DNA of 18,265 nt from a virus. Taxonomy: Duplodnaviria > Heunggongvirae > Uroviricota > Caudoviricetes. The stretch lies in the IMG/VR virus record IMGVR_UViG_2541047922_000008. One strand, written 5' to 3'. Positions 700-16,928 of this stretch are shown here, in pieces. How positions within the stretch are numbered: the stretch's first letter is position 1; each line of letters starts with the position of its first letter. A program made the translations under genes and the position numbers. Below the pieces are notes generated by a model. It was given only the letters and a program-made list of their open reading frames with translations. It was not told the DNA's origin and ran no database searches.

Positions 700-1014
700 T
701 CACGATAGTTCCGTTTTGTTGAATTCAATTATATCAAGGTCAGAACTTTCGTAATCCTTACCGAATAAAGCAAAACATATCGCGTCAAGTTCTCTCTTAT
801 GTTTGGACGCCCGATCATAATTACCACCCCAACAGCAAATGAATCCACCAAGTACTGCTGATTCAAAAAGTAATGATGCTGCATCAATATGTCTGAACCA
901 GGAGTCTATAAGTAAAGCAGAGAGTGATATTAATGTTCCCCACCCGCCAATCCTTCTCCATTTCTCAGCTTCATATTTAAGAGAAGCAATATATTCAATT
1001 TTATCTCTCGTCAT
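700..1014 (-). CDS. small membrane protein (104 aa, two predicted hydrophobic helices), last gene of the cargo operon
   Basis: ORF with ATG overlapping the upstream stop (TGATG at 1012-1016). Hydrophobic stretches WGTLISLSALLIDSWF and ASLLFESAVLGGFICCWGG. About 35% GC, versus about 50% for the neighbouring genes. Confidence 0.6.
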   Translation of the reverse strand: MTRDKIEYIASLKYEAEKWRRIGGWGTLISLSALLIDSWFRHIDAASLLFESAVLGGFICCWGGNYDRASKHKRELDAICFALFGKDYESSDLDIIEFNKTELS

Positions 1015-3770
1015 CAGTTCCCCACCGCCTTTCCAAAATCCGGTGCTCTACGTGGCGCAATAGCACCCGGTTCCCACCAACTCGTTATGTCGAACTCCCG
1101 TTGCGAGCGGTCCCTTACTCGATCATTGTAACCAGGGTTTGCCATCTCCTGAAGTTGTTGCAATATCAGGTGATTGGTTATCGCTTTCGCATACCACAGG
1201 TTTGCGAATGGGGTGATCATGCGGGCTGTTTTCAGTGCATCGGCACCGAATGATGTTTCTTCACCCTGTAGAGCCTTCTGTGGGTTAGTAATCAGTAATT
1301 TTGTTAACTGCTCTGCAAAGCTCAACACAGGGCCCCCCATAGTGGCACCGATGCTGGAGCCATATTGCGTATGGTCCTGGAAAATAAAATCACCGTAGAT
1401 ACCGAACGAACCACCTTTCAGTAAAGCCTGAACCCATGTGGTTGGTTTTGTCATATCCAGCGGATCATTACCATTTAACAAACTGTTCATCTGGATCGCA
1501 AACATACCAGCAAGAGTTGTTCCCCCGATATATGAGGCCAGAAATTTAATGGCCGGAACGGTGTCCAAATCCCGTGTTCTGTTAACAAGTTGCCGAAATC
1601 CAGCAAATGGGGTTGTTTTGAAGAGCATGAAGCTCTTCATTAACTCGCCAGCATCATCACGGGCATATGTATCAATACCCGTAGCGGTGGTCACAGCATT
1701 GGTCATCTCACCGTGCGTAATTCCCAGCAATTTCTGGGCTGCTTCAGCGCGTGCATTACGAATCATGCGCGTGATGGTCTGCTCAGCCTCAGCGTCGAAT
1801 GCTTCTTTCATCCGTTTCAGGCGTTCTGGAGGGAGATCTCCAAGGGCTGCCAGTGCCTTTTCACTCCCGGCACGAATCCGGGTAATACGGTCTGCCATAA
1901 TGTCGGCTATTACGTTATCGGGCACAGCGTAAATCGCGTCTGGCGTCATCCCCATATGCCCGGCAGTAGTCATCGGCCTGAGTTCTGCCGCTGCCATGAT
2001 GGCCCAGTCCTCATTGCTCCATCCCTTGTTAGCCAGAATGGTTTTATCGGTTCCTTTCATATCGTCCAGCGTCTTAAATTTTCTGGTCAGCTCGCCAATG
2101 TTTTTGTACATCAGGAGACCAAACGACGCTTTGTTTGCGCGGTCCATAGCGATCAGCCCGGACCACTTCAGTGTCTTCTCTGCGAACCAGCCAGTTATGC
2201 CGCGAGACAAGTCAAACCCGCCCATTTTCGAAACCACAGCAGCATGTGAATCCACCAGCAGACCGAGTTCAGCATTCGCCTTTTTGGCATCTCCACTAAA
2301 CAGGTTTTTGATAGTGTTAACGGAAAGCCGCATTCCACCACGGGTAAAGCCCAGCGCCTGCGCATTTGCCCGCATAATTGCCTGGTCGCTGGTTGCTGTC
2401 AGTACGCTGGTGCCAAGCATGGCGCTGGTCATCAGGTTACGCAGACCACCAACTGCTGAAGAGAACACACTCGATGAAGCGACACCATTTAGGCCAGCCA
2501 TTGAGTTGAACATACGGGCAACTAATTTGGCCTCATCCTCCATTTCTTTTTTGCGTTTCCCGCCTGTTACTGCGCGCTTATAGATGCGATCCAGTACCAG
2601 GGAAAAGTTTCTTTCGGCGTCCGGACCAAAGGCTTTAACGACGCCCAAATCCCTGGATGATGATTGCAGGTGCGACATCATCACCCCCACCAGCGGCTGC
2701 TGAGTGTATCGCTCCATATAGGCGAAGTGTGACTGCGCATCCTTGAACGCCATCACCCTGTGCTGAGAACCACGGCTCTTTATTCCTCCGGCTCCCATAA
2801 ATGTACCAGGCTCAATTTTGTTTGCCCCATCAGTGGCCTTCGTTTCAAAGATCGCTTCCAGTGCCTGACGGTACTCGACGTCATTCATAATGCTGCCGTC
2901 AGGATTAACGTAATTGCTGCGATCCTGCGTGTTGTAAGCGTCATCAACCCATTTCTGGCGGGCAAACTCAATCGGTGGCTGGCGACCTGAAAGACGTGCT
3001 GTAGCTTGCTCTGCCACTGGTAACGATGCCAGCCATTCTTCGCGCCCGGCATTGCGAATAAGGTCAGCATCATCCACATATGGCGTATGCCAGTCTTCTC
3101 GCAGGCCTATGTCAAAGCCATTGTCGTTCATCTCATGACGAACACGGCCTGTTACATCCTTCCAAATCTGTGCAATTTTCTTCGCCAGGGGATTCCCGGT
3201 ATCTTCGCCATATATTTCTTTCAGGATCTGGAGTTGTGCAGACTTTGCCGCCTGCCTGTCGAATACACTCCGAAACCGCTGCTCTCCAAGCGCCCTGCTC
3301 TGCTCGAAGAATTTGCGGACGTCATCACCTGCTTTTAGAAGTTCAGCACTGAGCTGACGGGACCAGTCCTGATATGCCCCAATTGCAAGCTCTTCAGCAG
3401 AAGTAACGGAGATATCAGCTTTGTCTCTCGATCGTCGGCCAGCAAAAATAAACTGCTGCAAATTAACAGGTGTCTGCTGATCAGGCGGGATGTTAGCATC
3501 GAGAGTGTCAGTAATTTTACTGATGGCGATCGCATTCTGGGCAACACGCTGTCTTTTCTTGTACACATCATGAACCACACGCTGGCGAACCAGTTCTGCA
3601 GCATCCATGTATGTTTGAGCATCAGGAATACCACTTTTGCCTTCCATTGCATTCTTTCTGTGCACTTGCCGCACAGCTTCTTTGATACGATCTTCGATAT
3701 TTTTCAGCTCATCAGCCTTTGGCTGGCGACCAAGTGTCTGCGCAATAGCTTCAACACATGCCTGTTTCAT
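1014..3770 (-). CDS. giant protein C (about 918 aa), unknown function, Gly/Ser/Ala-rich hydrophobic central region, no P-loop
   Basis: Long ORF. The ORF track starts at a GTG at 3791; I prefer the ATG at 3770, which overlaps the stop of protein B as TAATG (3768-3772), the same junction as between A and B. No Walker A motif seen. Confidence 0.85.
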   Translation of the reverse strand: MKQACVEAIAQTLGRQPKADELKNIEDRIKEAVRQVHRKNAMEGKSGIPDAQTYMDAAELVRQRVVHDVYKKRQRVAQNAIAISKITDTLDANIPPDQQTPVNLQQFIFAGRRSRDKADISVTSAEELAIGAYQDWSRQLSAELLKAGDDVRKFFEQSRALGEQRFRSVFDRQAAKSAQLQILKEIYGEDTGNPLAKKIAQIWKDVTGRVRHEMNDNGFDIGLREDWHTPYVDDADLIRNAGREEWLASLPVAEQATARLSGRQPPIEFARQKWVDDAYNTQDRSNYVNPDGSIMNDVEYRQALEAIFETKATDGANKIEPGTFMGAGGIKSRGSQHRVMAFKDAQSHFAYMERYTQQPLVGVMMSHLQSSSRDLGVVKAFGPDAERNFSLVLDRIYKRAVTGGKRKKEMEDEAKLVARMFNSMAGLNGVASSSVFSSAVGGLRNLMTSAMLGTSVLTATSDQAIMRANAQALGFTRGGMRLSVNTIKNLFSGDAKKANAELGLLVDSHAAVVSKMGGFDLSRGITGWFAEKTLKWSGLIAMDRANKASFGLLMYKNIGELTRKFKTLDDMKGTDKTILANKGWSNEDWAIMAAAELRPMTTAGHMGMTPDAIYAVPDNVIADIMADRITRIRAGSEKALAALGDLPPERLKRMKEAFDAEAEQTITRMIRNARAEAAQKLLGITHGEMTNAVTTATGIDTYARDDAGELMKSFMLFKTTPFAGFRQLVNRTRDLDTVPAIKFLASYIGGTTLAGMFAIQMNSLLNGNDPLDMTKPTTWVQALLKGGSFGIYGDFIFQDHTQYGSSIGATMGGPVLSFAEQLTKLLITNPQKALQGEETSFGADALKTARMITPFANLWYAKAITNHLILQQLQEMANPGYNDRVRDRSQREFDITSWWEPGAIAPRRAPDFGKAVGN

Positions 3771-5830
3771 TATGGGTTCCTCAAGAAGCACGCTGCCGCT
3801 ACAGAATAAACCTTCGATTCGTTCTGGACTGTCTTAATCTGTTCATCCAACTCAGCCAGGAGATCAGAAAGTTTTGTCGGGTTTCCGGTTTCCGGGTGAG
3901 CTATAGTCAGCTCAGGATTGGCAACAGCCATGTCCCTAGCAGCCATAAGGTCATAGCTGTTGGATGAGAGAACCTGCCCTGTATCTGGATCAACGCTGAC
4001 GTCCCCTCTGTGTTCACCAGCCGATGAGAAAGCACTTTCAGCACGAGGGACAGGCGATTCACTAATTGGCTCTGATGATGTTTCATATCTGACACCATTT
4101 TCTTCAAAAACCTTTTGTATTTCATGGTATTGCTCTTGGTAAGTATCAGATATATCTGATCGCAATGGACCATCAAGCCCTCGCGCCATCCCCCCAACAT
4201 TTACAGGCTGACCATCATTAAGTTGCCTGTATGCTTCATCCATGGCGTCAACATGGCTGTTGATGCTCTCATTGCTGGTGTGAAGCACTGGTGACGATTC
4301 AATATCGTAATGAAGCCCCTCATTCAAAATGTGGGCTGCATCAATATCGCTTGGTTTTATTCTTTCCCTCGCCCGGATACCAAAAACTTTTTCTACTGCG
4401 GCTTCCAGTTTCATATTGCGAAGACGCATACTTACGAGTAACCGTAACTGCTCAGGTGTAACGGTTCCAACCTGAATACCACTGTATCTGAATATATAGG
4501 CTTTAAAACCTGAAATAATTTTTTCCCATGATGAAACGCTTGTCTTTAGAGATGGATTTACTGCATGTGCGGCAACTTCTTCAGCGTACAACCACTCAGG
4601 ATATGTTTCAGGGTACTCACCCCTTTTCTTATATTCATAATATTGTGACATCCCATATGCAAATTCAGGATAGTCAGAATGCTTGTTTGCAGATTTAAGT
4701 ACAGCATTAGCTAGCTTTCTGGCCTTCCAGTCAGGGTAATGGCGCTGCTCAAGATGAAGCGCCTCGTGATGAAGGGTTTCTAACAGTTCTTCATGGTCTT
4801 TTAATCCATTAATATTTATTCTTATTATTGGTTCTTTTCCAGAAGCTACTGTCACATGACCTTTATTCAGAAGTATTTCTCCATCACTATTTTTTATTGC
4901 TGGTTCATTAATAAGTTCTATTACTCCTGAATCAGATAAATCACGAACCATTGACTCAATGTTACCATCAGGAGATTGCTGATAATGTTCACCAAAAGTT
5001 GATTTTATTTCTTCTGCAGAAATGTTCGACTCTGTACCATCATGGTTATTATGGGTAGTCAGGTGATGAACGCCACCAAAGACCCCGCCTAAAACGGCAT
5101 CGACTAACATCGCCTGACCGTCAAATACCCGGTACTGTTTTGCCATCTCCGTGTAGCCTTTTTCCTCCAGTGTTGCGCCGACAGAGTAACGGTTCAGTCC
5201 ACCGAATCCGGTGTTGATTGCCACACCTGAGGCAATGCGCGTTGCCAGTGTGGTGCCGACGGCAGCGGGTAAGGCCATACCCACAGCATTGAAAAGGCTT
5301 TGCTGCGTTGCCAGGTTACGCGCCGTAGCCTCGTCTACTCCCTTCCCTTTAAAATCCTGATAGGACTGCTCATACGTAGAACTGAAAGCTGTAGCAGCGC
5401 CGATGAGGGGACCGCCAAACATAGTTGTTCCGATTGCAGGAACAAATTTACCAAGCTCATTTAATACCTCAGCCGCCATTCCCTGACTGCCTGCATCAGG
5501 CTTCACATAGCTGCGGGCATCCTGTAACTGTTTTCCGATCGTGTCGTATGTATCATTCAGTGTTTTGTCAGCATCAGGGAACATCTCCCGAAAAATATTA
5601 ACAGTCGGTGCCACGTCTGCGGTAAATGCCGGATCGCTAATCAGGCGCTTGCTGAATCCGACGGCAGACTGCGCGAGACCGAGAGTCCCCTCCGCCACGC
5701 CGCTCAAAAGTGCAGTACCTGAACCCTGGAAGGGAGTCGGATCGTAGTCTTCTGGCCTTGCTGGGTTGGCAACTGTTTTGTCGTCAATCCATGCCTGACC
5801 TTCTGGAGCCAAAGAAAAAACATCAGACAT
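3770..5830 (-). CDS. giant protein B (686 aa), N-terminal glycine-rich hydrophobic segments plus a single HExxH zincin-type motif
   Basis: Long ORF whose ATG overlaps the stop of protein A (TAATG at 5828-5832). HHEALHLEQ at residues 354-362 (nt 4745-4771). GxxxG-rich hydrophobic stretches across residues about 120-260. No P-loop. Confidence 0.85.
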   Translation of the reverse strand: MSDVFSLAPEGQAWIDDKTVANPARPEDYDPTPFQGSGTALLSGVAEGTLGLAQSAVGFSKRLISDPAFTADVAPTVNIFREMFPDADKTLNDTYDTIGKQLQDARSYVKPDAGSQGMAAEVLNELGKFVPAIGTTMFGGPLIGAATAFSSTYEQSYQDFKGKGVDEATARNLATQQSLFNAVGMALPAAVGTTLATRIASGVAINTGFGGLNRYSVGATLEEKGYTEMAKQYRVFDGQAMLVDAVLGGVFGGVHHLTTHNNHDGTESNISAEEIKSTFGEHYQQSPDGNIESMVRDLSDSGVIELINEPAIKNSDGEILLNKGHVTVASGKEPIIRININGLKDHEELLETLHHEALHLEQRHYPDWKARKLANAVLKSANKHSDYPEFAYGMSQYYEYKKRGEYPETYPEWLYAEEVAAHAVNPSLKTSVSSWEKIISGFKAYIFRYSGIQVGTVTPEQLRLLVSMRLRNMKLEAAVEKVFGIRARERIKPSDIDAAHILNEGLHYDIESSPVLHTSNESINSHVDAMDEAYRQLNDGQPVNVGGMARGLDGPLRSDISDTYQEQYHEIQKVFEENGVRYETSSEPISESPVPRAESAFSSAGEHRGDVSVDPDTGQVLSSNSYDLMAARDMAVANPELTIAHPETGNPTKLSDLLAELDEQIKTVQNESKVYSVAAACFLRNP

Positions 5831-8361
5831 TATTCAACCCTCACGACAATAGCTTCATTGGTTCTGGGATCTGTTGCCCAGCGTCCGCTACCATTTACCA
5901 GCCGATACCGGTTATTGCCGATATTAACTGGTGTGAAGTTTGACACTGCATTTACGTTAAGTCCGGCTTCTTTCAGTGCTTGTTTCGCAGATGTGGTATA
6001 GCGATCTTTGAAAGTAGATTTATCCATGCCGAAAGGCATTACAACGTCGCCGCCATTAAAATCCTTGTATATACCGCCAGTAGCATACTTCACGGCATCA
6101 GCAACAGTGTCTGTATCAGGCATACTGGTTCTTACCGTAGATGCATCACCTGATTGATAAGCTATTCCTGCGTAAGCGGCTTTGAAAAGGCTATAACTGA
6201 TCTGACGTAACTGCGGGTTACGGGCAAATGCGTTACCTACCTGTTTGTCGAAAGCGTCTTTCATCTTATCTTCGCTCGGCAACTGTACCGGAGTTATGCC
6301 CGCATTCTTCATGGCCTTCGTCGGATTCAGTAGTTGGTCACCGGAAAGAATAACCTTTGCAACGTCGTACTTGTTCATCGTCGGCTTATACCCGATGAAC
6401 TGACTATATGGGATCGACGGTCTGGTGTTATCGTACTGATTATCCGGCGTGCCCAGCAGCAGCGCAGAATAGGCTGTTGCCGCACTGTTCGGAGCAATTA
6501 CAGATGCCACCTGCCGTATTGCTGGCGCAGGCAGCTTCTCCCCCATGCTCTGCAACAGTTTAATTGTCTGGTCAACGTTCTGAGTGCCGCGCACCTGCTG
6601 TGCCAGCGCAGCCGCCTCTTCACTGTTGAGGATTGGGGCATTAATTCCCAACGCGCGTAAGCTTTCCTGCGACGAGAAACGGTTAGCCACCTCGGCAGTG
6701 ATGTCGTCAGGGTTGTTGCTGGTGATCGGCTTATAGGCTCCGATTTCCACCGCTGCACTAAACGGATTATTCTGCCTCTGGGTTATTACCTTCGTGGCTG
6801 CCGCCGATACCCGGTCGAATAACTCCGCACGAGACGCATACCCCTCCCCTGTCTCACCAGTATCCGGGCGTAATTGCTCAACATATGCGGTAATGCTGCT
6901 TGTCGGCATGTTGCGGAAAGAGCCTATATACTGTCCGGCGATCTGCAAATTTCTGAACTCGGTATATCGCAGGTTTCCTTCTCTGACACCATAAGCAGCA
7001 ATGAACTCACCCTCACCAGGCGGGTTAGGAAATTCAACGCCACGCATATACGCAGCCGTTGCATCGCGAACCCGGCTTTCGAGCATCGTTCTATATTCAG
7101 CCTGCTGCTGTCTGGCTAATGCATCCGTCTGTCGCAACACGCTGGCCTGATCTGATTCACTTAAAGCATCGAACCAAGCTACACCGGTATAACGTTTATT
7201 TTTTGTCGGTAGCTGAGAAAGCCCCAGTGCGGCACTAACGCCAGCGGCCAATTGCTGATCACTGTACGGCTGACTGCCTTGCTCATGATGAATAATTGCT
7301 TTGCACAGAGATTTCAGTGTGTCAGGATTTGATGCGTCAAGCGGCTGGTCAGGAGTTACACCGAGCTGAGCACATACTGCCCGTATATAAGCATCAGTTT
7401 TATTATCATCACTGGCCGGTGCCCAGCGATTAATTATTTCGCTGATGGTGTCATAACCCTGACGCTGATACGACAGCAAATTGCGACCAAGCGCGCGAAT
7501 ACCGTGTTCAGGGGTTTCGAATTTGGCAAAGCGACCATCATCACCAGTCTGCCCAACCCACGGATTAGTTTTGCTGTATTCAAGATTGCCGGGGTTATTG
7601 TTGCGTATACCGCGGGTACGATCGGAAGAGCCACTATCTGCTACAGCACGGCGAGATCCAGCAGCAGTATCGCTTAACTCGCCGTTTTGCTGTCTTACCT
7701 GAAGATAGTTTGCTCCAATAGCATTTTGAGCAGTTGCTTTTGCTGTTGCTTCTTTAAACTCGATTTTCTTGGCCTGGATTTGCTCGTCGCTCCAGCCATG
7801 CGCAATACCGTAATCCTCAATTTGCTGGAAAGTTTGCGTATTAGCCAATATGTATGCTGCGTTGTCGCCATATAATGCTGAGGCATTTTTACCATTATTC
7901 AGCAGTGTCGCCTGAAACTGGCCTTCTTCGTAGGCATTTATTTGCCCTATCTCGTACCTCCCGGCCTGCGTAGCGAACTGAATACGCTGCTGCTGCGCCT
8001 GCTGCATGAAAGCATTACGAGCCTGTTCATCCGGCAGCGACATAGCCAGTTGTTCGATCTGAGCATCAAACTGCTGTGTATACTCATGGCCTTTTCCAAT
8101 AGCATTTTTCCCTTTCAGGTTAAGCAATCCTGTTTCAGGATTATTCAGCAGATCACTGCCTGTCTGACTGAGTTTAAGGGATGCCTCCTGAACCAAGGCA
8201 ATATTGGCGCGCTGTTTTGCCTGACCAAGAACATCAATTGCCTCTGTCCCTGCCCGAACAAAAGCATCACCAATACCTGGCTGAGAAAACGTCTGCAAGC
8301 CTGCTGACTGAACTCCACGGCTCTCAACCTGGCGTCCGGATACTGTTGGTACGACTGGCAT
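5830..8361 (-). CDS. giant protein A (843 aa), Q/A/N-rich, unknown function
   Basis: Long ORF with ATG at 8361 preceded by an AGGGGG Shine-Dalgarno. Sharply defined block TRGIRNNNPGNLEYSKTNPWVGQTGDDGRFAKFETPEHGIRALGRNLLSYQ at residues 248-299. No P-loop. Confidence 0.85.
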   Translation of the reverse strand: MPVVPTVSGRQVESRGVQSAGLQTFSQPGIGDAFVRAGTEAIDVLGQAKQRANIALVQEASLKLSQTGSDLLNNPETGLLNLKGKNAIGKGHEYTQQFDAQIEQLAMSLPDEQARNAFMQQAQQQRIQFATQAGRYEIGQINAYEEGQFQATLLNNGKNASALYGDNAAYILANTQTFQQIEDYGIAHGWSDEQIQAKKIEFKEATAKATAQNAIGANYLQVRQQNGELSDTAAGSRRAVADSGSSDRTRGIRNNNPGNLEYSKTNPWVGQTGDDGRFAKFETPEHGIRALGRNLLSYQRQGYDTISEIINRWAPASDDNKTDAYIRAVCAQLGVTPDQPLDASNPDTLKSLCKAIIHHEQGSQPYSDQQLAAGVSAALGLSQLPTKNKRYTGVAWFDALSESDQASVLRQTDALARQQQAEYRTMLESRVRDATAAYMRGVEFPNPPGEGEFIAAYGVREGNLRYTEFRNLQIAGQYIGSFRNMPTSSITAYVEQLRPDTGETGEGYASRAELFDRVSAAATKVITQRQNNPFSAAVEIGAYKPITSNNPDDITAEVANRFSSQESLRALGINAPILNSEEAAALAQQVRGTQNVDQTIKLLQSMGEKLPAPAIRQVASVIAPNSAATAYSALLLGTPDNQYDNTRPSIPYSQFIGYKPTMNKYDVAKVILSGDQLLNPTKAMKNAGITPVQLPSEDKMKDAFDKQVGNAFARNPQLRQISYSLFKAAYAGIAYQSGDASTVRTSMPDTDTVADAVKYATGGIYKDFNGGDVVMPFGMDKSTFKDRYTTSAKQALKEAGLNVNAVSNFTPVNIGNNRYRLVNGSGRWATDPRTNEAIVVRVE

Positions 8362-9961: not shown

Positions 9962-10387
9962 TTAAAACGGTATCCCGTCCCCGTACGGATCATCGTGCTG
10001 GCCTGTCTGTTGCTTTGCCCTGTTCAGTGCATCAGTAGCCTGCCCCTGCTGGCCTTTTTTGCCGCCCGGTCGCGCCGTTCGCGCACTGATTACGCTGTCT
10101 GCGATAACCTGCCATCCCTGCCTCGTTTCGCCGTTCTGGCCCGTCCACCGGCTCACCTGCATGTTACCGGCCACGCTTACCAGTTCGCCTTTGTGGTGTT
10201 TTGCCAGTGCGTCAGCCTGTCTGCCAAACGCCAGGACGGATAACCACATCGTCGCCGTTCCGTCATCTGCCTGATTGCATGGAAGGGGGACCGCCATACT
10301 CGCCATCGCCATTTGTGTGCCCTTGCTGGTGGTCTTTAACTGCGGGTCAGCCACCAGCCGCCCGTAAGCTGATATTTGCGCCGTCAT
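9962..10387 (-). CDS. ssb: single-stranded DNA-binding protein (SSB-like OB fold with acidic C-terminal tip)
   Basis: Residue pattern (GRLVADPQL ... TMWLSVLAFGRQADALA ... GELVSVAGNMQVSRWTGQNG) parallels E. coli SSB. C-terminal DDPYGDGIPF resembles the SSB DDDIPF tail. GGAGAA Shine-Dalgarno upstream. Confidence 0.8.
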   Translation of the reverse strand: MTAQISAYGRLVADPQLKTTSKGTQMAMASMAVPLPCNQADDGTATMWLSVLAFGRQADALAKHHKGELVSVAGNMQVSRWTGQNGETRQGWQVIADSVISARTARPGGKKGQQGQATDALNRAKQQTGQHDDPYGDGIPF

Positions 10388-10446
10388 GCTGTTTGTTCTC
10401 CGGTTTTAACGTGATAGTTACGCTTGTTTACACTCTTACAGTGAAA

Positions 10447-10574
10447 TTTTGCGGGTTACAATCGCACATTTGCGGGTTATAACTGCCGTTTTGCGGGTTA
10501 CGTGCGGGTTATTGATTTCCTTTTTAATCATGCAGTTAATTAACTTATACACAGGATAACCCGCATAACCCGCA
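10447..10574. repeat. iteron cluster, putative origin of replication
   Basis: Four direct copies of TTTGCGGGTTA at 10447, 10468, 10488 and 10502 (spacing about 21, 21, 11 bp). Two inverted copies TAACCCGCA at 10557-10565 and 10566-10574. An AT-rich spacer lies between them. Located between the primase stop and the ssb start. Confidence 0.6.
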
Positions 10575-10597
10575 ACTTTTTACCTCACACAGGGAAG

Positions 10598-12724
10598 TTA
10601 ATCTTCTGCTTCAGGCTGGAACATCAGCACGTAAAAAATATGCTGCTTCCCGCCAATCCTGCCGAGCGCCTTTTTCTTGTAACGGCGGTCGCCTCCCGCT
10701 TCCAGCATTCCGGCAGCACTCAACGCGCGGGCAAAGTGAGACGGATTAAATCCCTGTGCTATCTCACCCTCAAACACATGCGGGAACGTGTAAAAACGGA
10801 ACTCGTCATCTTCGTTTCTGATACTCCCCTTTCTGTATCCGGCAAGGTCTTTAATCGGTAAATCACGCTCGTCGCTGTTTGGATAGGGAAGGTATCGACT
10901 GAACCCGAACGACGACAAAAACGCCTCAGCCTGTTCAACCATCTGTTTAAATTCCCTGTTGCCCGTGCCGAATTCCTTCACCCAGGCATTAAAGTTATGC
11001 TGAACTGCATCACGGCACGCCTGAACATCCCAGCCTGTAACATGACCGGAAAGCACAAGCGCGGCCTCCAGTACGGCGAATCTTTCCCCCACACGGTGAA
11101 CCTGCTCGCCGTAGCTCTCCGGTATCAGGTTGCGCCACCGCTCGCGACATGCCCTTACCGCGTCCTTTGCCTCCTGCTGGTGGCCTGCCAGCCATTTAAC
11201 CCACTCACGACCTGCCGCCCCGTGATTTTCTGTCCAGGCATCTTTTAACGCGTCTGCGTGCGCCTTTCCGGTGCTGTATTCGTGAAACTGCGAGGCCTTT
11301 TCCATCGGTACGTTAAGCAGACGGACAAGCTGCCCCGCTTTAATTTTTATCCCTTCCGTTTTGAGGAATGTTTCAACGTCCATTTCTCCGGTGCTGATTG
11401 CCACCGTGCGCCAGTGTTTTATCTCCCTGTTGCCGCCGTCCTTCGCCCCCTGTAATTTCCCGGAACCGTTAAACAGCGTATAGGCTGACGTGGACACCTC
11501 CCGTGCGTTTCCGGCCTGGCCTATTTCATCCAGGGGTAACAGCCCGTCATTATGTGCTTCGGCCTCGTTGGCGATACCTAACGCCGTTCCGTACCAGGTC
11601 AGCCGTTGCGCGTCCGGCTCTCCCCATAAACTTGATGCAATGTTCTGTGTGGTGGTTTTACCTGCTGATGATTGCTCAAAAAGATGAACCCCGAAGCCGT
11701 CAGCACCCACCAGCCCGATTAATGGTGCAGATAGCGATACCGCCACACCCAGCATCATGGACGGATTACCACCAGCCAGCCGTGCCACGGTATCGCGCCA
11801 GCCCTCCGCTGTTCCCGCCACGGAATAGCCATTAACAGCGGCAGTTTTTCCGGTAAACAGGATGGGTTTCTCTGATTCACCAATGACCGAACCGTCCGGC
11901 ATGATGTACGCACCAAAATGCCACCCCGTTGTTGTGCTTAACTGCCATTCCTCATGGTTTCCGCTTAACTGCATCCAGTCAGCCAGGATAGCCCTGTATT
12001 TGCCGTTGGTCGTCACGTTAAGGCCGTGGTCTTTCAGCAACCGCCAGCCGTCACGGTCACCAATGCCTCCGCACGGGACCGCCATTGTAATGACCTCATG
12101 GTTTGCTGGTTTTTTCCAGCGCATTACGCGGTAATGCTCTTTTCCGATTGTTCCTGTTCCCAGTAGTTCAAGCGGAGAACATAACCACGTCTCAGGCCGG
12201 ATAATTTCGCCTGACTGCTTGTCCACTTTGGGCGTTACCCAGAAAACACCATCGACGCGACTTTCAACACGAGGCTTTAATTCGTCATCATAATTTCCGG
12301 TGAAATTTGTCTTCGCCGGAAGGTTGATCACCAGACTGTTACCGTGTTCCGCATCATCCTTCAGTCCAGCCATGCGCGGTGTCCAGTCCTCCGGCTGCTG
12401 ATCAACAAAGCTGCGGTAGCAACGCGCCTCCTTCACACCCGCCACTGCAAGCAGTGTCGCTATCTGTGTAAGGTGCTGCTCTGATATTTCACCAGCACGA
12501 TAAACGCGCACGTAATAGCGCCCTTTGTCGATGATTTGCGTGTCTGCCAGACTCGCCAGTTGTTCCGGTCCAAGAATAACTGGATGTGTATCATCTGCCG
12601 CAATATGCTTTCCGGCCCATTCGCTCCACTCTTTCGCATGTGCCCAGGCATCACTACCCGCAAAGATAATCACCTCCGTCATTTTGTCTTTCGGCTGGTG
12701 CTTTAAATTCGGTGCGCGTTTCAT
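10598..12724 (-). CDS. replication primase/helicase-type protein (P4 alpha-like or DUF927-like P-loop NTPase)
   Basis: 708-aa ORF. Walker A-like FEQSSAGKTTTQ and Walker B-like LLPLDEIG. Position immediately upstream of the iteron cluster. ATGA overlap with the upstream 100-aa gene. Confidence 0.8.
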   Translation of the reverse strand: MKRAPNLKHQPKDKMTEVIIFAGSDAWAHAKEWSEWAGKHIAADDTHPVILGPEQLASLADTQIIDKGRYYVRVYRAGEISEQHLTQIATLLAVAGVKEARCYRSFVDQQPEDWTPRMAGLKDDAEHGNSLVINLPAKTNFTGNYDDELKPRVESRVDGVFWVTPKVDKQSGEIIRPETWLCSPLELLGTGTIGKEHYRVMRWKKPANHEVITMAVPCGGIGDRDGWRLLKDHGLNVTTNGKYRAILADWMQLSGNHEEWQLSTTTGWHFGAYIMPDGSVIGESEKPILFTGKTAAVNGYSVAGTAEGWRDTVARLAGGNPSMMLGVAVSLSAPLIGLVGADGFGVHLFEQSSAGKTTTQNIASSLWGEPDAQRLTWYGTALGIANEAEAHNDGLLPLDEIGQAGNAREVSTSAYTLFNGSGKLQGAKDGGNREIKHWRTVAISTGEMDVETFLKTEGIKIKAGQLVRLLNVPMEKASQFHEYSTGKAHADALKDAWTENHGAAGREWVKWLAGHQQEAKDAVRACRERWRNLIPESYGEQVHRVGERFAVLEAALVLSGHVTGWDVQACRDAVQHNFNAWVKEFGTGNREFKQMVEQAEAFLSSFGFSRYLPYPNSDERDLPIKDLAGYRKGSIRNEDDEFRFYTFPHVFEGEIAQGFNPSHFARALSAAGMLEAGGDRRYKKKALGRIGGKQHIFYVLMFQPEAED

Positions 12725-13576: not shown

Positions 13577-13616
13577 CTGTGCGCACAGATTAAAATCATG
13601 TGTGCGCACATGTCAA
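13577..13616 (-). promoter_or_regulatory. leftward promoter with palindromic operators
   Basis: Perfect -35 TTGACA on the minus strand (13611-13616). It overlaps the perfect 16-bp palindrome CATGTGTGCGCACATG (13597-13612). A perfect 12-bp palindrome CTGTGCGCACAG (13577-13588) lies at the expected transcription start. A half-site TTGTGTGCGCC sits near 13645-13657. The -10 hexamer is weak (TTAATC). Confidence 0.5.
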
Positions 13617-13684
13617 TACTTAACTTCTCACTTTTTTTGCTGTATTGTGTGCGCCCATCAAATCCATTTAAGTGAGGTGTACCA

Positions 13685-15933: not shown

Positions 15934-16109
15934 TTACCTCATAACGTCTACTCAATTTGACGAGGTAATCATGGCACAGAAATAACGAATATTTTCATAC
16001 CCTCAGGCCTAATGGTTACCGGAAGGAAATTAACCCTAAGGGTGATGGTAAAATTGACGGGGAAGATAAAAAAAATACCCTCAGGGTAACAGTAAATCAC
16101 CCTCAGGGT
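15934..16109 (-). promoter_or_regulatory. alpA leader: Shine-Dalgarno-sequestering inverted repeat plus phased palindromes
   Basis: Inverted repeat TTACCTC (15934-15940) / GAGGTAA (15962-15968) pairs the alpA Shine-Dalgarno with an upstream anti-SD. Palindrome ACCCTCAGGGT at 16077-16087 and 16099-16109, variant ACCCTAAGGGT at 16033-16043, half-site ACCCTCAGG at 15988-15996. Centre-to-centre spacing 45, 44 and 22 bp. Confidence 0.5.
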
Positions 16110-16124
16110 ATGTGGTATGGTGCG

Positions 16125-16928
16125 TTAATCCGGCTTTGCGTTCTTTTGGCTGTTGTCTCGGTTAATAGGGCAGGCAGTCCTCTCTATGAGCGTTGCAAGA
16201 GCATTACTTGCCCCCCACTGCTTAAGCTCCCTGGTTATCGCTTCTTGATTTCCCCTGGTGGCAAAATCATTTTCTGGATCGTAATTGGCCCACTCTCTGT
16301 TTCTAATCTCAATAGCCTTAGCTAATGGGTCTTTATCCCAGTATTTATATAAGTGTATCGGGCGCTCTTGCTCTAACTGCTCTATCCTTGCCCTTAACTC
16401 TGCGTTTTCTCTTTCCAGCATTGCGATTTGGGATAATAAATCATCCTCTGTACGCAACTCTTTCTTTTCAATATCGCGTCCTTGTGCCTCGTCATTTTCA
16501 GAAGAGTTAGCGCCTTCCAGCTTCGTTAACGCGTCAAGGACATCGGGAAAAATTGCGAAAATTTCACCCCTTATAAATCCAATGTTCTCAAATTCGGGAT
16601 CTTCCCAATAACCGGACACCAGAAAACCATTTTCATCCCTCTCACCAGGTAAACAACCATGTTTCCGAACCGCATCCAGATTTCTATAAAGAACATCATA
16701 ATCAAATTCATCCCGATACGGGTTACAAAAAGATTCCAACAGCTTAAATTCATTTACTGTGTACAGGCGGATATGTTCTCCGCTTATTCTCCTGAGTATC
16801 CAAGTTATGAGATCTGAAACATCATAATCATCACCAGCGACCTTAAGCACGACCTCAAGAAATTCACGTAAAGAAATAAAATCTTTTTTGTATTCGTTTA
16901 ATTCGGCATGAATATCAATCATACGCAC
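16125..16928 (-). CDS. acidic protein (267 aa) with central coiled coil, unknown function
   Basis: ORF with GAGGTG Shine-Dalgarno. About 56 Asp+Glu versus about 36 Lys+Arg. Heptad-like segment LLSQIAMLERENAELRARIEQLEQER. Sits between int and alpA. Confidence 0.6.
   Translation of the reverse strand: MRMIDIHAELNEYKKDFISLREFLEVVLKVAGDDYDVSDLITWILRRISGEHIRLYTVNEFKLLESFCNPYRDEFDYDVLYRNLDAVRKHGCLPGERDENGFLVSGYWEDPEFENIGFIRGEIFAIFPDVLDALTKLEGANSSENDEAQGRDIEKKELRTEDDLLSQIAMLERENAELRARIEQLEQERPIHLYKYWDKDPLAKAIEIRNREWANYDPENDFATRGNQEAITRELKQWGASNALATLIERTACPINRDNSQKNAKPD

Follow-up and report, generated by a model that had tools for sequence, protein, structure and literature searches.

We analyzed a window of 18,265 bp (the window being the whole stretch of DNA under study), which matched the chromosome of E. 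coli FDAARGOS_1298 at 100% identity. It carries an island adjoining a tRNA-Gly gene, with all relevant genes on the minus strand: those for a tyrosine integrase, AlpA, AntA, Bro-N, an Icd-like protein, a DUF4222 protein, and the initiator-helicase Pri-Rep, followed by a cluster of short repeats and then by the genes for SSB, ProQ/FinO, PerC (a frameshifted pseudogene), and four proteins without hits. Pfam matches to integrase, AlpA, and DUF927, all on the minus strand, place the island among the phage-inducible chromosomal islands (PICIs), which are recognized by a single gene direction and a size of 10–20 kb. The gene order int-alpA-icd-DUF4222-pri-[repeats]-ssb-PerC is that of the tested satellite EcCICFT073. 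Genes encoding capsid, terminase, or packaging proteins were not found in the island, and a comparison of its tRNA-Gly end with its far end for an att repeat gave no shared exact match of at least 14 nt.

Four co-directional, overlapping or abutting genes on the minus strand (700–8361), coding for products of 843, 686, 925, and 104 aa, had no match in Pfam, NCBIfam, or PADLOC. They fill the slot of the capsid and terminase genes of related islands and could be uncharacterized cargo or could serve the satellite as an anti-phage system. Between the Icd-like operon and the divergent YlcI/YnfO gene, the palindromes CTGTGCGCACAG and ATGTGTGCGCACAT and a further half-site were present (13578–13612, 13646–13658); these probably act as operators in the regulatory switch of the island. 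Upstream of alpA, ACCCTCAGG or its complement occurs three times within a 210-nt tile (15951–16160), which may be a regulator-binding region.

The repeats are situated where an earlier note on this DNA had placed them, between the stop codon of pri-rep (10598–10600) and the ATG of ssb (10385–10387), both on the minus strand. Pri-Rep (10598–12724, minus strand) is a protein of 708 aa of the DUF927 family. The next gene of the replication module, ssb (9962–10387, minus strand; 141 aa; Pfam SSB, 2.4e-16), encodes a protein 67% identical to the SSB of EcCICFT073, and its leader (10388–10449, minus strand) contains the ribosome-binding site GGAGAA (10396–10401), as read from the sequence. On the initiator side, the first iteron begins 23 nt past the stop codon, and the spacer between them (10575–10597, minus strand) contains the motif CCTGTGTGAGGTAAAAAGT (10575–10593, minus strand), which is GTG-rich and then runs into a stretch of A and which recurs in relatives. 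A promoter and terminator scan revealed neither a terminator nor a minus-strand promoter between pri and ssb; the sole promoter-like site was on the plus strand and irrelevant to ssb. The earlier note correctly described the cluster as lying within the operon and not at the end of it; this position is no peculiarity of the island, being the standard layout of the Gram-negative PICI family.

The repeat cluster

Exact matching located four copies of the iteron TGCGGGTTA on the plus strand (10450–10458, 10471–10479, 10492–10500, and 10503–10511; rep-distal set, 10450–10511) and two abutting copies on the minus strand (10557–10565 and 10566–10574; rep-proximal pair), the distal four being inverted relative to the proximal pair. 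The four direct and two inverted copies reported earlier were thereby recovered in full. Start-to-start distances in the distal set were 21, 21, and 11 bp, that is, two, two, and one helical turns. In the proximal pair, the distance was 9 bp and the copies abut; the helical-turn spacing that had been attributed to all copies is therefore valid for the four-copy set only. The AT-rich segment said to be flanked by the repeats was also present: 45 bp between the two sets (10512–10556) have a G+C content of 27% vs 49% window-wide. This AT-rich core is the putative melting site.

In dinucleotide-preserving shuffles, any 9-mer reached six copies per 210 nt in only 7 cases out of 5000, and the other 210-nt tiles of the window held at most four copies of any 9-mer; thus, the cluster is real. 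One further exact copy of TGCGGGTTA occurs in the 18,265-bp window, at 6212. With at most one mismatch allowed, the whole window contained 12 matches vs 3.9 expected, a number reached by none of 200 shuffles. A one-mismatch copy at 10341–10349 was ruled out as an iteron: it is located within the coding sequence of ssb, occurs in relatives with different iterons as well, and was kept outside the repeat set because this coding sequence is common to all iteron families.

The single perfect DnaA-box consensus of the 18-kb window, TTATNCACA, was found inside the AT-rich core, adjoining the abutting iterons (10545–10553, plus strand). Most origins with TGCGGGTTA or GTGGGTTA iterons have this box unchanged or with one base altered, and it is missing from the other iteron families.

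Domains of the initiator Pri-Rep

Pfam gave DUF927 as the only match in Pri-Rep (2.5e-46, residues 169–436). The protein matched PHROG 1139 'DNA primase' at 1.5e-174, and a phmmer search against PDB gave SaPI Rep (8tch, 1.7e-14, residues 214–603) and SCCmec Cch (5dgk, 9e-4). Cch 5dgk was also the best Foldseek match of the full-length model (3.5e-9), a search that recovered Cch only. NCBIfam Cch1 matched at 9.6e-10, far below its equivalog cut-off. A protein identical to Pri-Rep belongs to a cluster of 290 member sequences. By these matches, the Pri-Rep core is a homologue of two self-loading helicases, SaPI Rep and SCCmec Cch. The gene had been called a primase/helicase; its helicase part is borne out by DUF927, whereas 'primase' comes from PHROG and database names alone, and no primase domain was detected by Pfam.

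The N-terminal domain (residues 1–145; 12290–12724, minus strand) was modelled confidently, with a pLDDT of about 80–88. It is common to the otherwise unrelated initiator of EcCICFT073 (42% identity over the first 160 residues) and varies independently of the core, with 42–60% identity among E. coli alleles; by this comparison, it appears to be a separate exchangeable module.

The C-terminal domain (residues 596–708; 10601–10939, minus strand) is the candidate iteron-recognition domain, its identity tracking the iteron family in 92 loci (see below). AlphaFold modelled it with a pLDDT of 44 when it was submitted alone (19-sequence alignment); for full-length Pri-Rep (45 sequences), the pLDDT was 58, with the ATPase (about residues 340–476) and the C-terminus below 50. 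In both models, residues 649–684 form a helix-helix-strand-strand series, an order compatible with a winged helix, at a pLDDT below 50. Because the models are of low confidence in this region, they do not confirm a winged-helix fold. A PDB profile search with the C-terminal alignment gave chance matches only (E above 1), and a homologue search with the C-terminal domain alone as the query returned fragments only.

Iteron families and the C-terminal domain across 92 loci

Homologues of the initiator were gathered from E. coli genomes, species-representative genomes, and IMG/VR, and 92 loci were compared. Downstream of every DUF927 homologue, the plan was the same: a spacer of ~20–25 nt, 2–3 abutting iterons, ~45 nt of AT-rich DNA, and 3–5 inverted iterons ~11/21 bp apart. 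This layout was kept across the 92 related loci, which fall into six iteron families, and the AT-rich gap between the iteron sets was ~45 bp in all six. The families are defined by TGCGGGTTA (41 loci, including the window), GTGGGTTA (Tenebrionibacter and IMG/VR loci), TTGTCCCA (E. coli MRE162 and E. albertii), TTATCCCA (Serratia oryzae), TTGGTTCA (Serratia and Yersinia), and CGGGTTCA (one IMG/VR locus). The origin DNA of E. coli MRE162 reads CTTGTCCCA vs the TGCGGGTTA of the window. At the same position in E. coli O26, a RepA-type initiator is accompanied by the iteron AAAGTGAGG. Motifs similar to CCTGTGTGAGGTAAAAAGT (e.g., ACGTGAGAGAAAACAT and GCGTGTAGGTTTAAAAACA) occupied the same place between initiator stop codon and first iteron in every DUF927-type origin compared, whatever the iteron family.

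The TGCGGGTTA pair immediately follows the Pri-Rep C-terminus in 40 occurrences in IMG/VR. Of 5426 complete E. coli genomes, 243 contain an origin of the window's type, among them O157:H7 in its capsid-forming island. A literature search with the iteron string gave unrelated primers and similar sequences only. Among 17 distinct origins of the TGCGGGTTA family, 1 of 36 iteron columns was variable vs 30 of 157 elsewhere (Fisher p = 0.012); the 36 columns are those not fixed by the search pattern. Within this family, the iterons are near-invariant while the spacers vary, and on this alignment evidence they are under purifying selection.

The inverted repeats might instead act as an RNA or single-stranded DNA hairpin, such as an attenuator, a processing site, or a stabilizer of the mRNA between pri and ssb. 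The minus-strand transcript indeed pairs the abutting copies with the two nearest inverted copies (−63.9 kcal/mol, z = −3.97, with 0 of 200 shuffles as good), and a joint change of the iteron on both arms would also keep the pairing. However, two copies per arm suffice for such a hairpin, and the two extra copies at 21-bp intervals are partnerless yet conserved; the arms are out of register in every family, with a 9-bp vs an 11-bp spacing, and no T-run terminator was present. An Rfam scan of 10250–10750 gave one sub-threshold match, RyfD, which was treated as a chance match (19.9 bits vs a gathering score of 42). Pairing also leaves unexplained the link of the repeats to a protein domain described next, and we regard a hairpin as quite improbable.

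The iteron family tracks the last ~113 residues of the initiator and not its helicase core or N-terminus. For the 92 loci, C-terminal identity was at least 66.7% (median 92.7%) in pairs with the same iteron and at most 69.7% (median 47.6%) in pairs with different iterons, where the top value belonged to two iterons one base apart. Core identity did not separate the two kinds of pairs in this way: it was 54.7–100% (median 95.6%) with the same iteron and reached 99–100% with different ones. The same was evident when four proteins were aligned. The MRE162 protein, which goes with a different iteron, has 96% identity to Pri-Rep in the core but only 38% over the final 113 residues; the O157-type protein, which goes with the same iteron, has only 42% identity in the N-terminal domain but 87% in the C-terminal domain.

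At the DNA level, the window and E. coli MRE162 (L004) differ over a delimited segment of ~515 bp (about 10402–10916) that comprises the origin and the region of the Pri-Rep C-terminal domain. Identity was 82–97% in the flanks (10242–10401 and 10957–11476), 75% in the transitional tile 10917–10956, and 25–52% inside the segment, a candidate swappable specificity cassette. The spacer motif recurs although the cassette around it has otherwise diverged.

Together, the conservation of the iterons and their covariation with the C-terminal domain predict that the repeats are protein-binding sites and that this domain is their reader; this comparison of sequences supports sites under selection, recognized by the C-terminal domain of the adjacent initiator. 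The earlier note had pointed to the C-terminal domain of the primase as the part to examine for binding to the repeats, and the tracking of the iteron by the C-terminal ~113 residues over 92 loci gives that proposal comparative support. Physical linkage of the domain to the adjacent iterons could partly produce their co-inheritance. A functional unit is favored over linkage alone, since a sharp boundary recurs at the same place on otherwise near-identical cores.

The same covariation bears on the possibility that the cluster is an operator, through which Pri-Rep or another regulator of the island controls the read-through into, or the expression of, ssb and the downstream genes and at which replication does not start. 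The cluster lies within a transcription unit in which no terminator separates pri from ssb, helical-turn spacing is also typical of operators, and other repeat or palindrome clusters of the island are located in regulatory gaps. Nevertheless, a minus-strand promoter was not found at the cluster, opposed sets around an AT-rich core after rep form the layout tested as an origin in EcCICFT073, and the iteron sequence tracks the C-terminal domain of a helicase and no regulator. An operator without origin function is therefore unlikely; a dual role, as both origin and autoregulatory site, may apply.

We suggest only tentatively, from the sequence comparisons, that the origin and the last ~113 residues might form a specificity cassette repeatedly exchanged between near-identical DUF927 cores, with at least six iteron families in Enterobacterales. 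If so, such swaps could sort satellites that share a host into groups of replication compatibility. A second iteron module, present in some relatives, could possibly be a crr-like enhancer or a copy-control (handcuffing) site. Neither cassette exchange nor a second iteron module was found in the searchable literature, in which the 2018 paper on Gram-negative PICIs is represented by its text.

This second origin-like module lies outside the window, in relatives of the island (L003, 2300–2460; L162, about 10780–11150; L037, 474–700). Its order is TATATATACAAAACAG, then TGCGGGTTATGCGGGTTAGCGGGTTA, then ~85 nt of AT-rich DNA, and then three copies of TAACCCGCA 21–22 bp apart. In O157:H7-type islands it is placed back-to-back with the first module at ~300 bp, and in other capsid-forming islands it is ~9 kb away, beyond the terminase genes. 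A similar module at the far end of capsid-forming elements, past the terminase genes, is what might be expected if the cluster were a packaging (cos/pac) or recombination site and not an origin. Yet the island of the window encodes neither terminase nor capsid, the pri-adjacent module is present with or without packaging genes, and the repeat sequence tracks Pri-Rep and not integrase or terminase, which makes a packaging or recombination site hardly credible.

A probable PICI-type origin and its known counterparts

We conclude that the cluster at 10450–10574 very probably serves a Gram-negative PICI of E. coli as its origin of replication. According to the text of Fillol-Salom et al. 2018 (PMC6092414), the origin of Gram-negative PICIs is situated immediately 3' of pri-rep and consists of an AT-rich region with a set of iterons on either side; a plasmid with pri and ori of EcCICFT073 replicates, and deletion of rep or ori impairs its replication. 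The location of the origin downstream of pri is restated in PMC10111431, where Primase (DUF927 included) and SSB are grouped with mapped origins. The cluster in the window has the same position relative to pri-rep and the same build, its AT-rich region being bounded by two iterons on one side and four on the other. The earlier proposal of a satellite-type origin recognized by its own initiator agrees, by comparison, with this layout, the gene order of the island, the helicase homology, and the covariation of iteron and C-terminal domain.

The layout, its conservation, the homologies, and the co-inheritance of iteron and C-terminal domain are observed features; from them and by analogy, we infer a sequence of binding, melting, helicase loading, and dependence on induction as follows. 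After induction by a helper phage, AlpA would switch on the leftward operon and Pri-Rep would be made, acting by analogy with SaPI Rep. Its C-terminal domain of ~113 residues would bind the 9-bp iterons, one assembly forming on the abutting pair next to the gene and the other on the four inverted copies one or two turns apart. The 45-bp AT-rich core between both assemblies would then melt, the DUF927 helicase rings would load themselves, and the excised island would replicate with its own SSB.

The call of an origin at this locus is correct but ordinary, because its layout has already been described for the Gram-negative PICI family; it leaves the knowledge of PICI replication unchanged. It fixes the replication module of an uncharacterized E. 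coli satellite island and defines a candidate minimal replicon, pri together with 10388–10597, for functional work or vector use. The natural swaps of C-terminal domain and origin would supply existing chimeras with which to map origin recognition by this family of helicases.

The tested satellite EcCICFT073 was located in the CFT073 genome; counterparts of seven of its proteins, and of the N-terminal 160 residues of its Pri, follow one another in the window in the same order. Both islands have the origin 3' of pri-rep, two iteron sets, and the backbone int, alpA, icd, DUF4222, pri, ssb, and PerC; the EcCICFT073 origin shows the layout of the window with another iteron, CTGTCTACC. Its initiator differs in having another core, a length of 584 aa, and the annotation 'DNA primase family', and it shares with Pri-Rep only the N-terminal 160 residues. 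Moreover, EcCICFT073 has capsid-related genes where the island of the window has three large genes without hits.

In the O157:H7 genome, an island between roxA and phoQ contains int, alpA, DUF927, ssb, PerC, capsid, protease, portal, HNH, TerS, and TerL genes. By gene content, size, and insertion site, this locus fits EcCIEDL933, a 15.4-kb cf-PICI that replicates after helper induction (Alqurainy et al., bioRxiv 10.1101/2022.09.08.507074). It resembles the window in the iteron TGCGGGTTA, the order pri-ori-ssb, and a DUF927 initiator with 83% identity over its whole length and 87% in the C-terminal domain. It differs in a doubled origin, with a second inverted module ~300 bp away, in an extra small gene before ssb, and in a full capsid and terminase module.

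An iteron origin of the Rep_3/RepA plasmid type (pSC101, R6K, F, P1), with direct iterons of 17–22 bp in one orientation, was rejected: the initiator is a DUF927 helicase, and the iterons are 9 bp long and arranged in opposed sets. As to DnaA boxes next to iterons, another trait of these plasmids, the window has the one perfect box in its AT-rich core, which is not conserved across the other iteron families. P4 is a satellite of enterobacteria whose primase-helicase binds short iterons through its C-terminal domain. Compared with the alpha/ori/crr system of P4, Pri-Rep has DUF927 only, with no Pox_D5 or D5_N domain, and the window has a single iteron cluster and the gene order of PICIs, not that of P4. 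The second, distant iteron module in some relatives of the island recalls the crr of P4.

SaPI Rep is a self-loading helicase whose C-terminal domain, a winged helix, binds iterons located directly behind the rep ORF; two or more of them flank the AT-rich center of the SaPI origin on either side, in opposite directions (PMC9371898). SaPI Rep/ori and Cch are like the system of the window in the helicase core, an origin directly downstream of rep, and opposed iterons, at least two per side, around an AT-rich center. Specificity located in the C-terminal domain would be common to SaPI Rep and Pri-Rep, the latter assigned by covariation only. The system of the window differs in its iterons of 9 bp vs 5–6 bp, its Gram-negative host, the extra N-terminal domain of the initiator, and an asymmetric conserved arrangement with abutting copies on one side and 11/21-bp spacing on the other. 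We regard the repeat cluster as one more representative of the class of PICI origins already known, not as a new kind of element.
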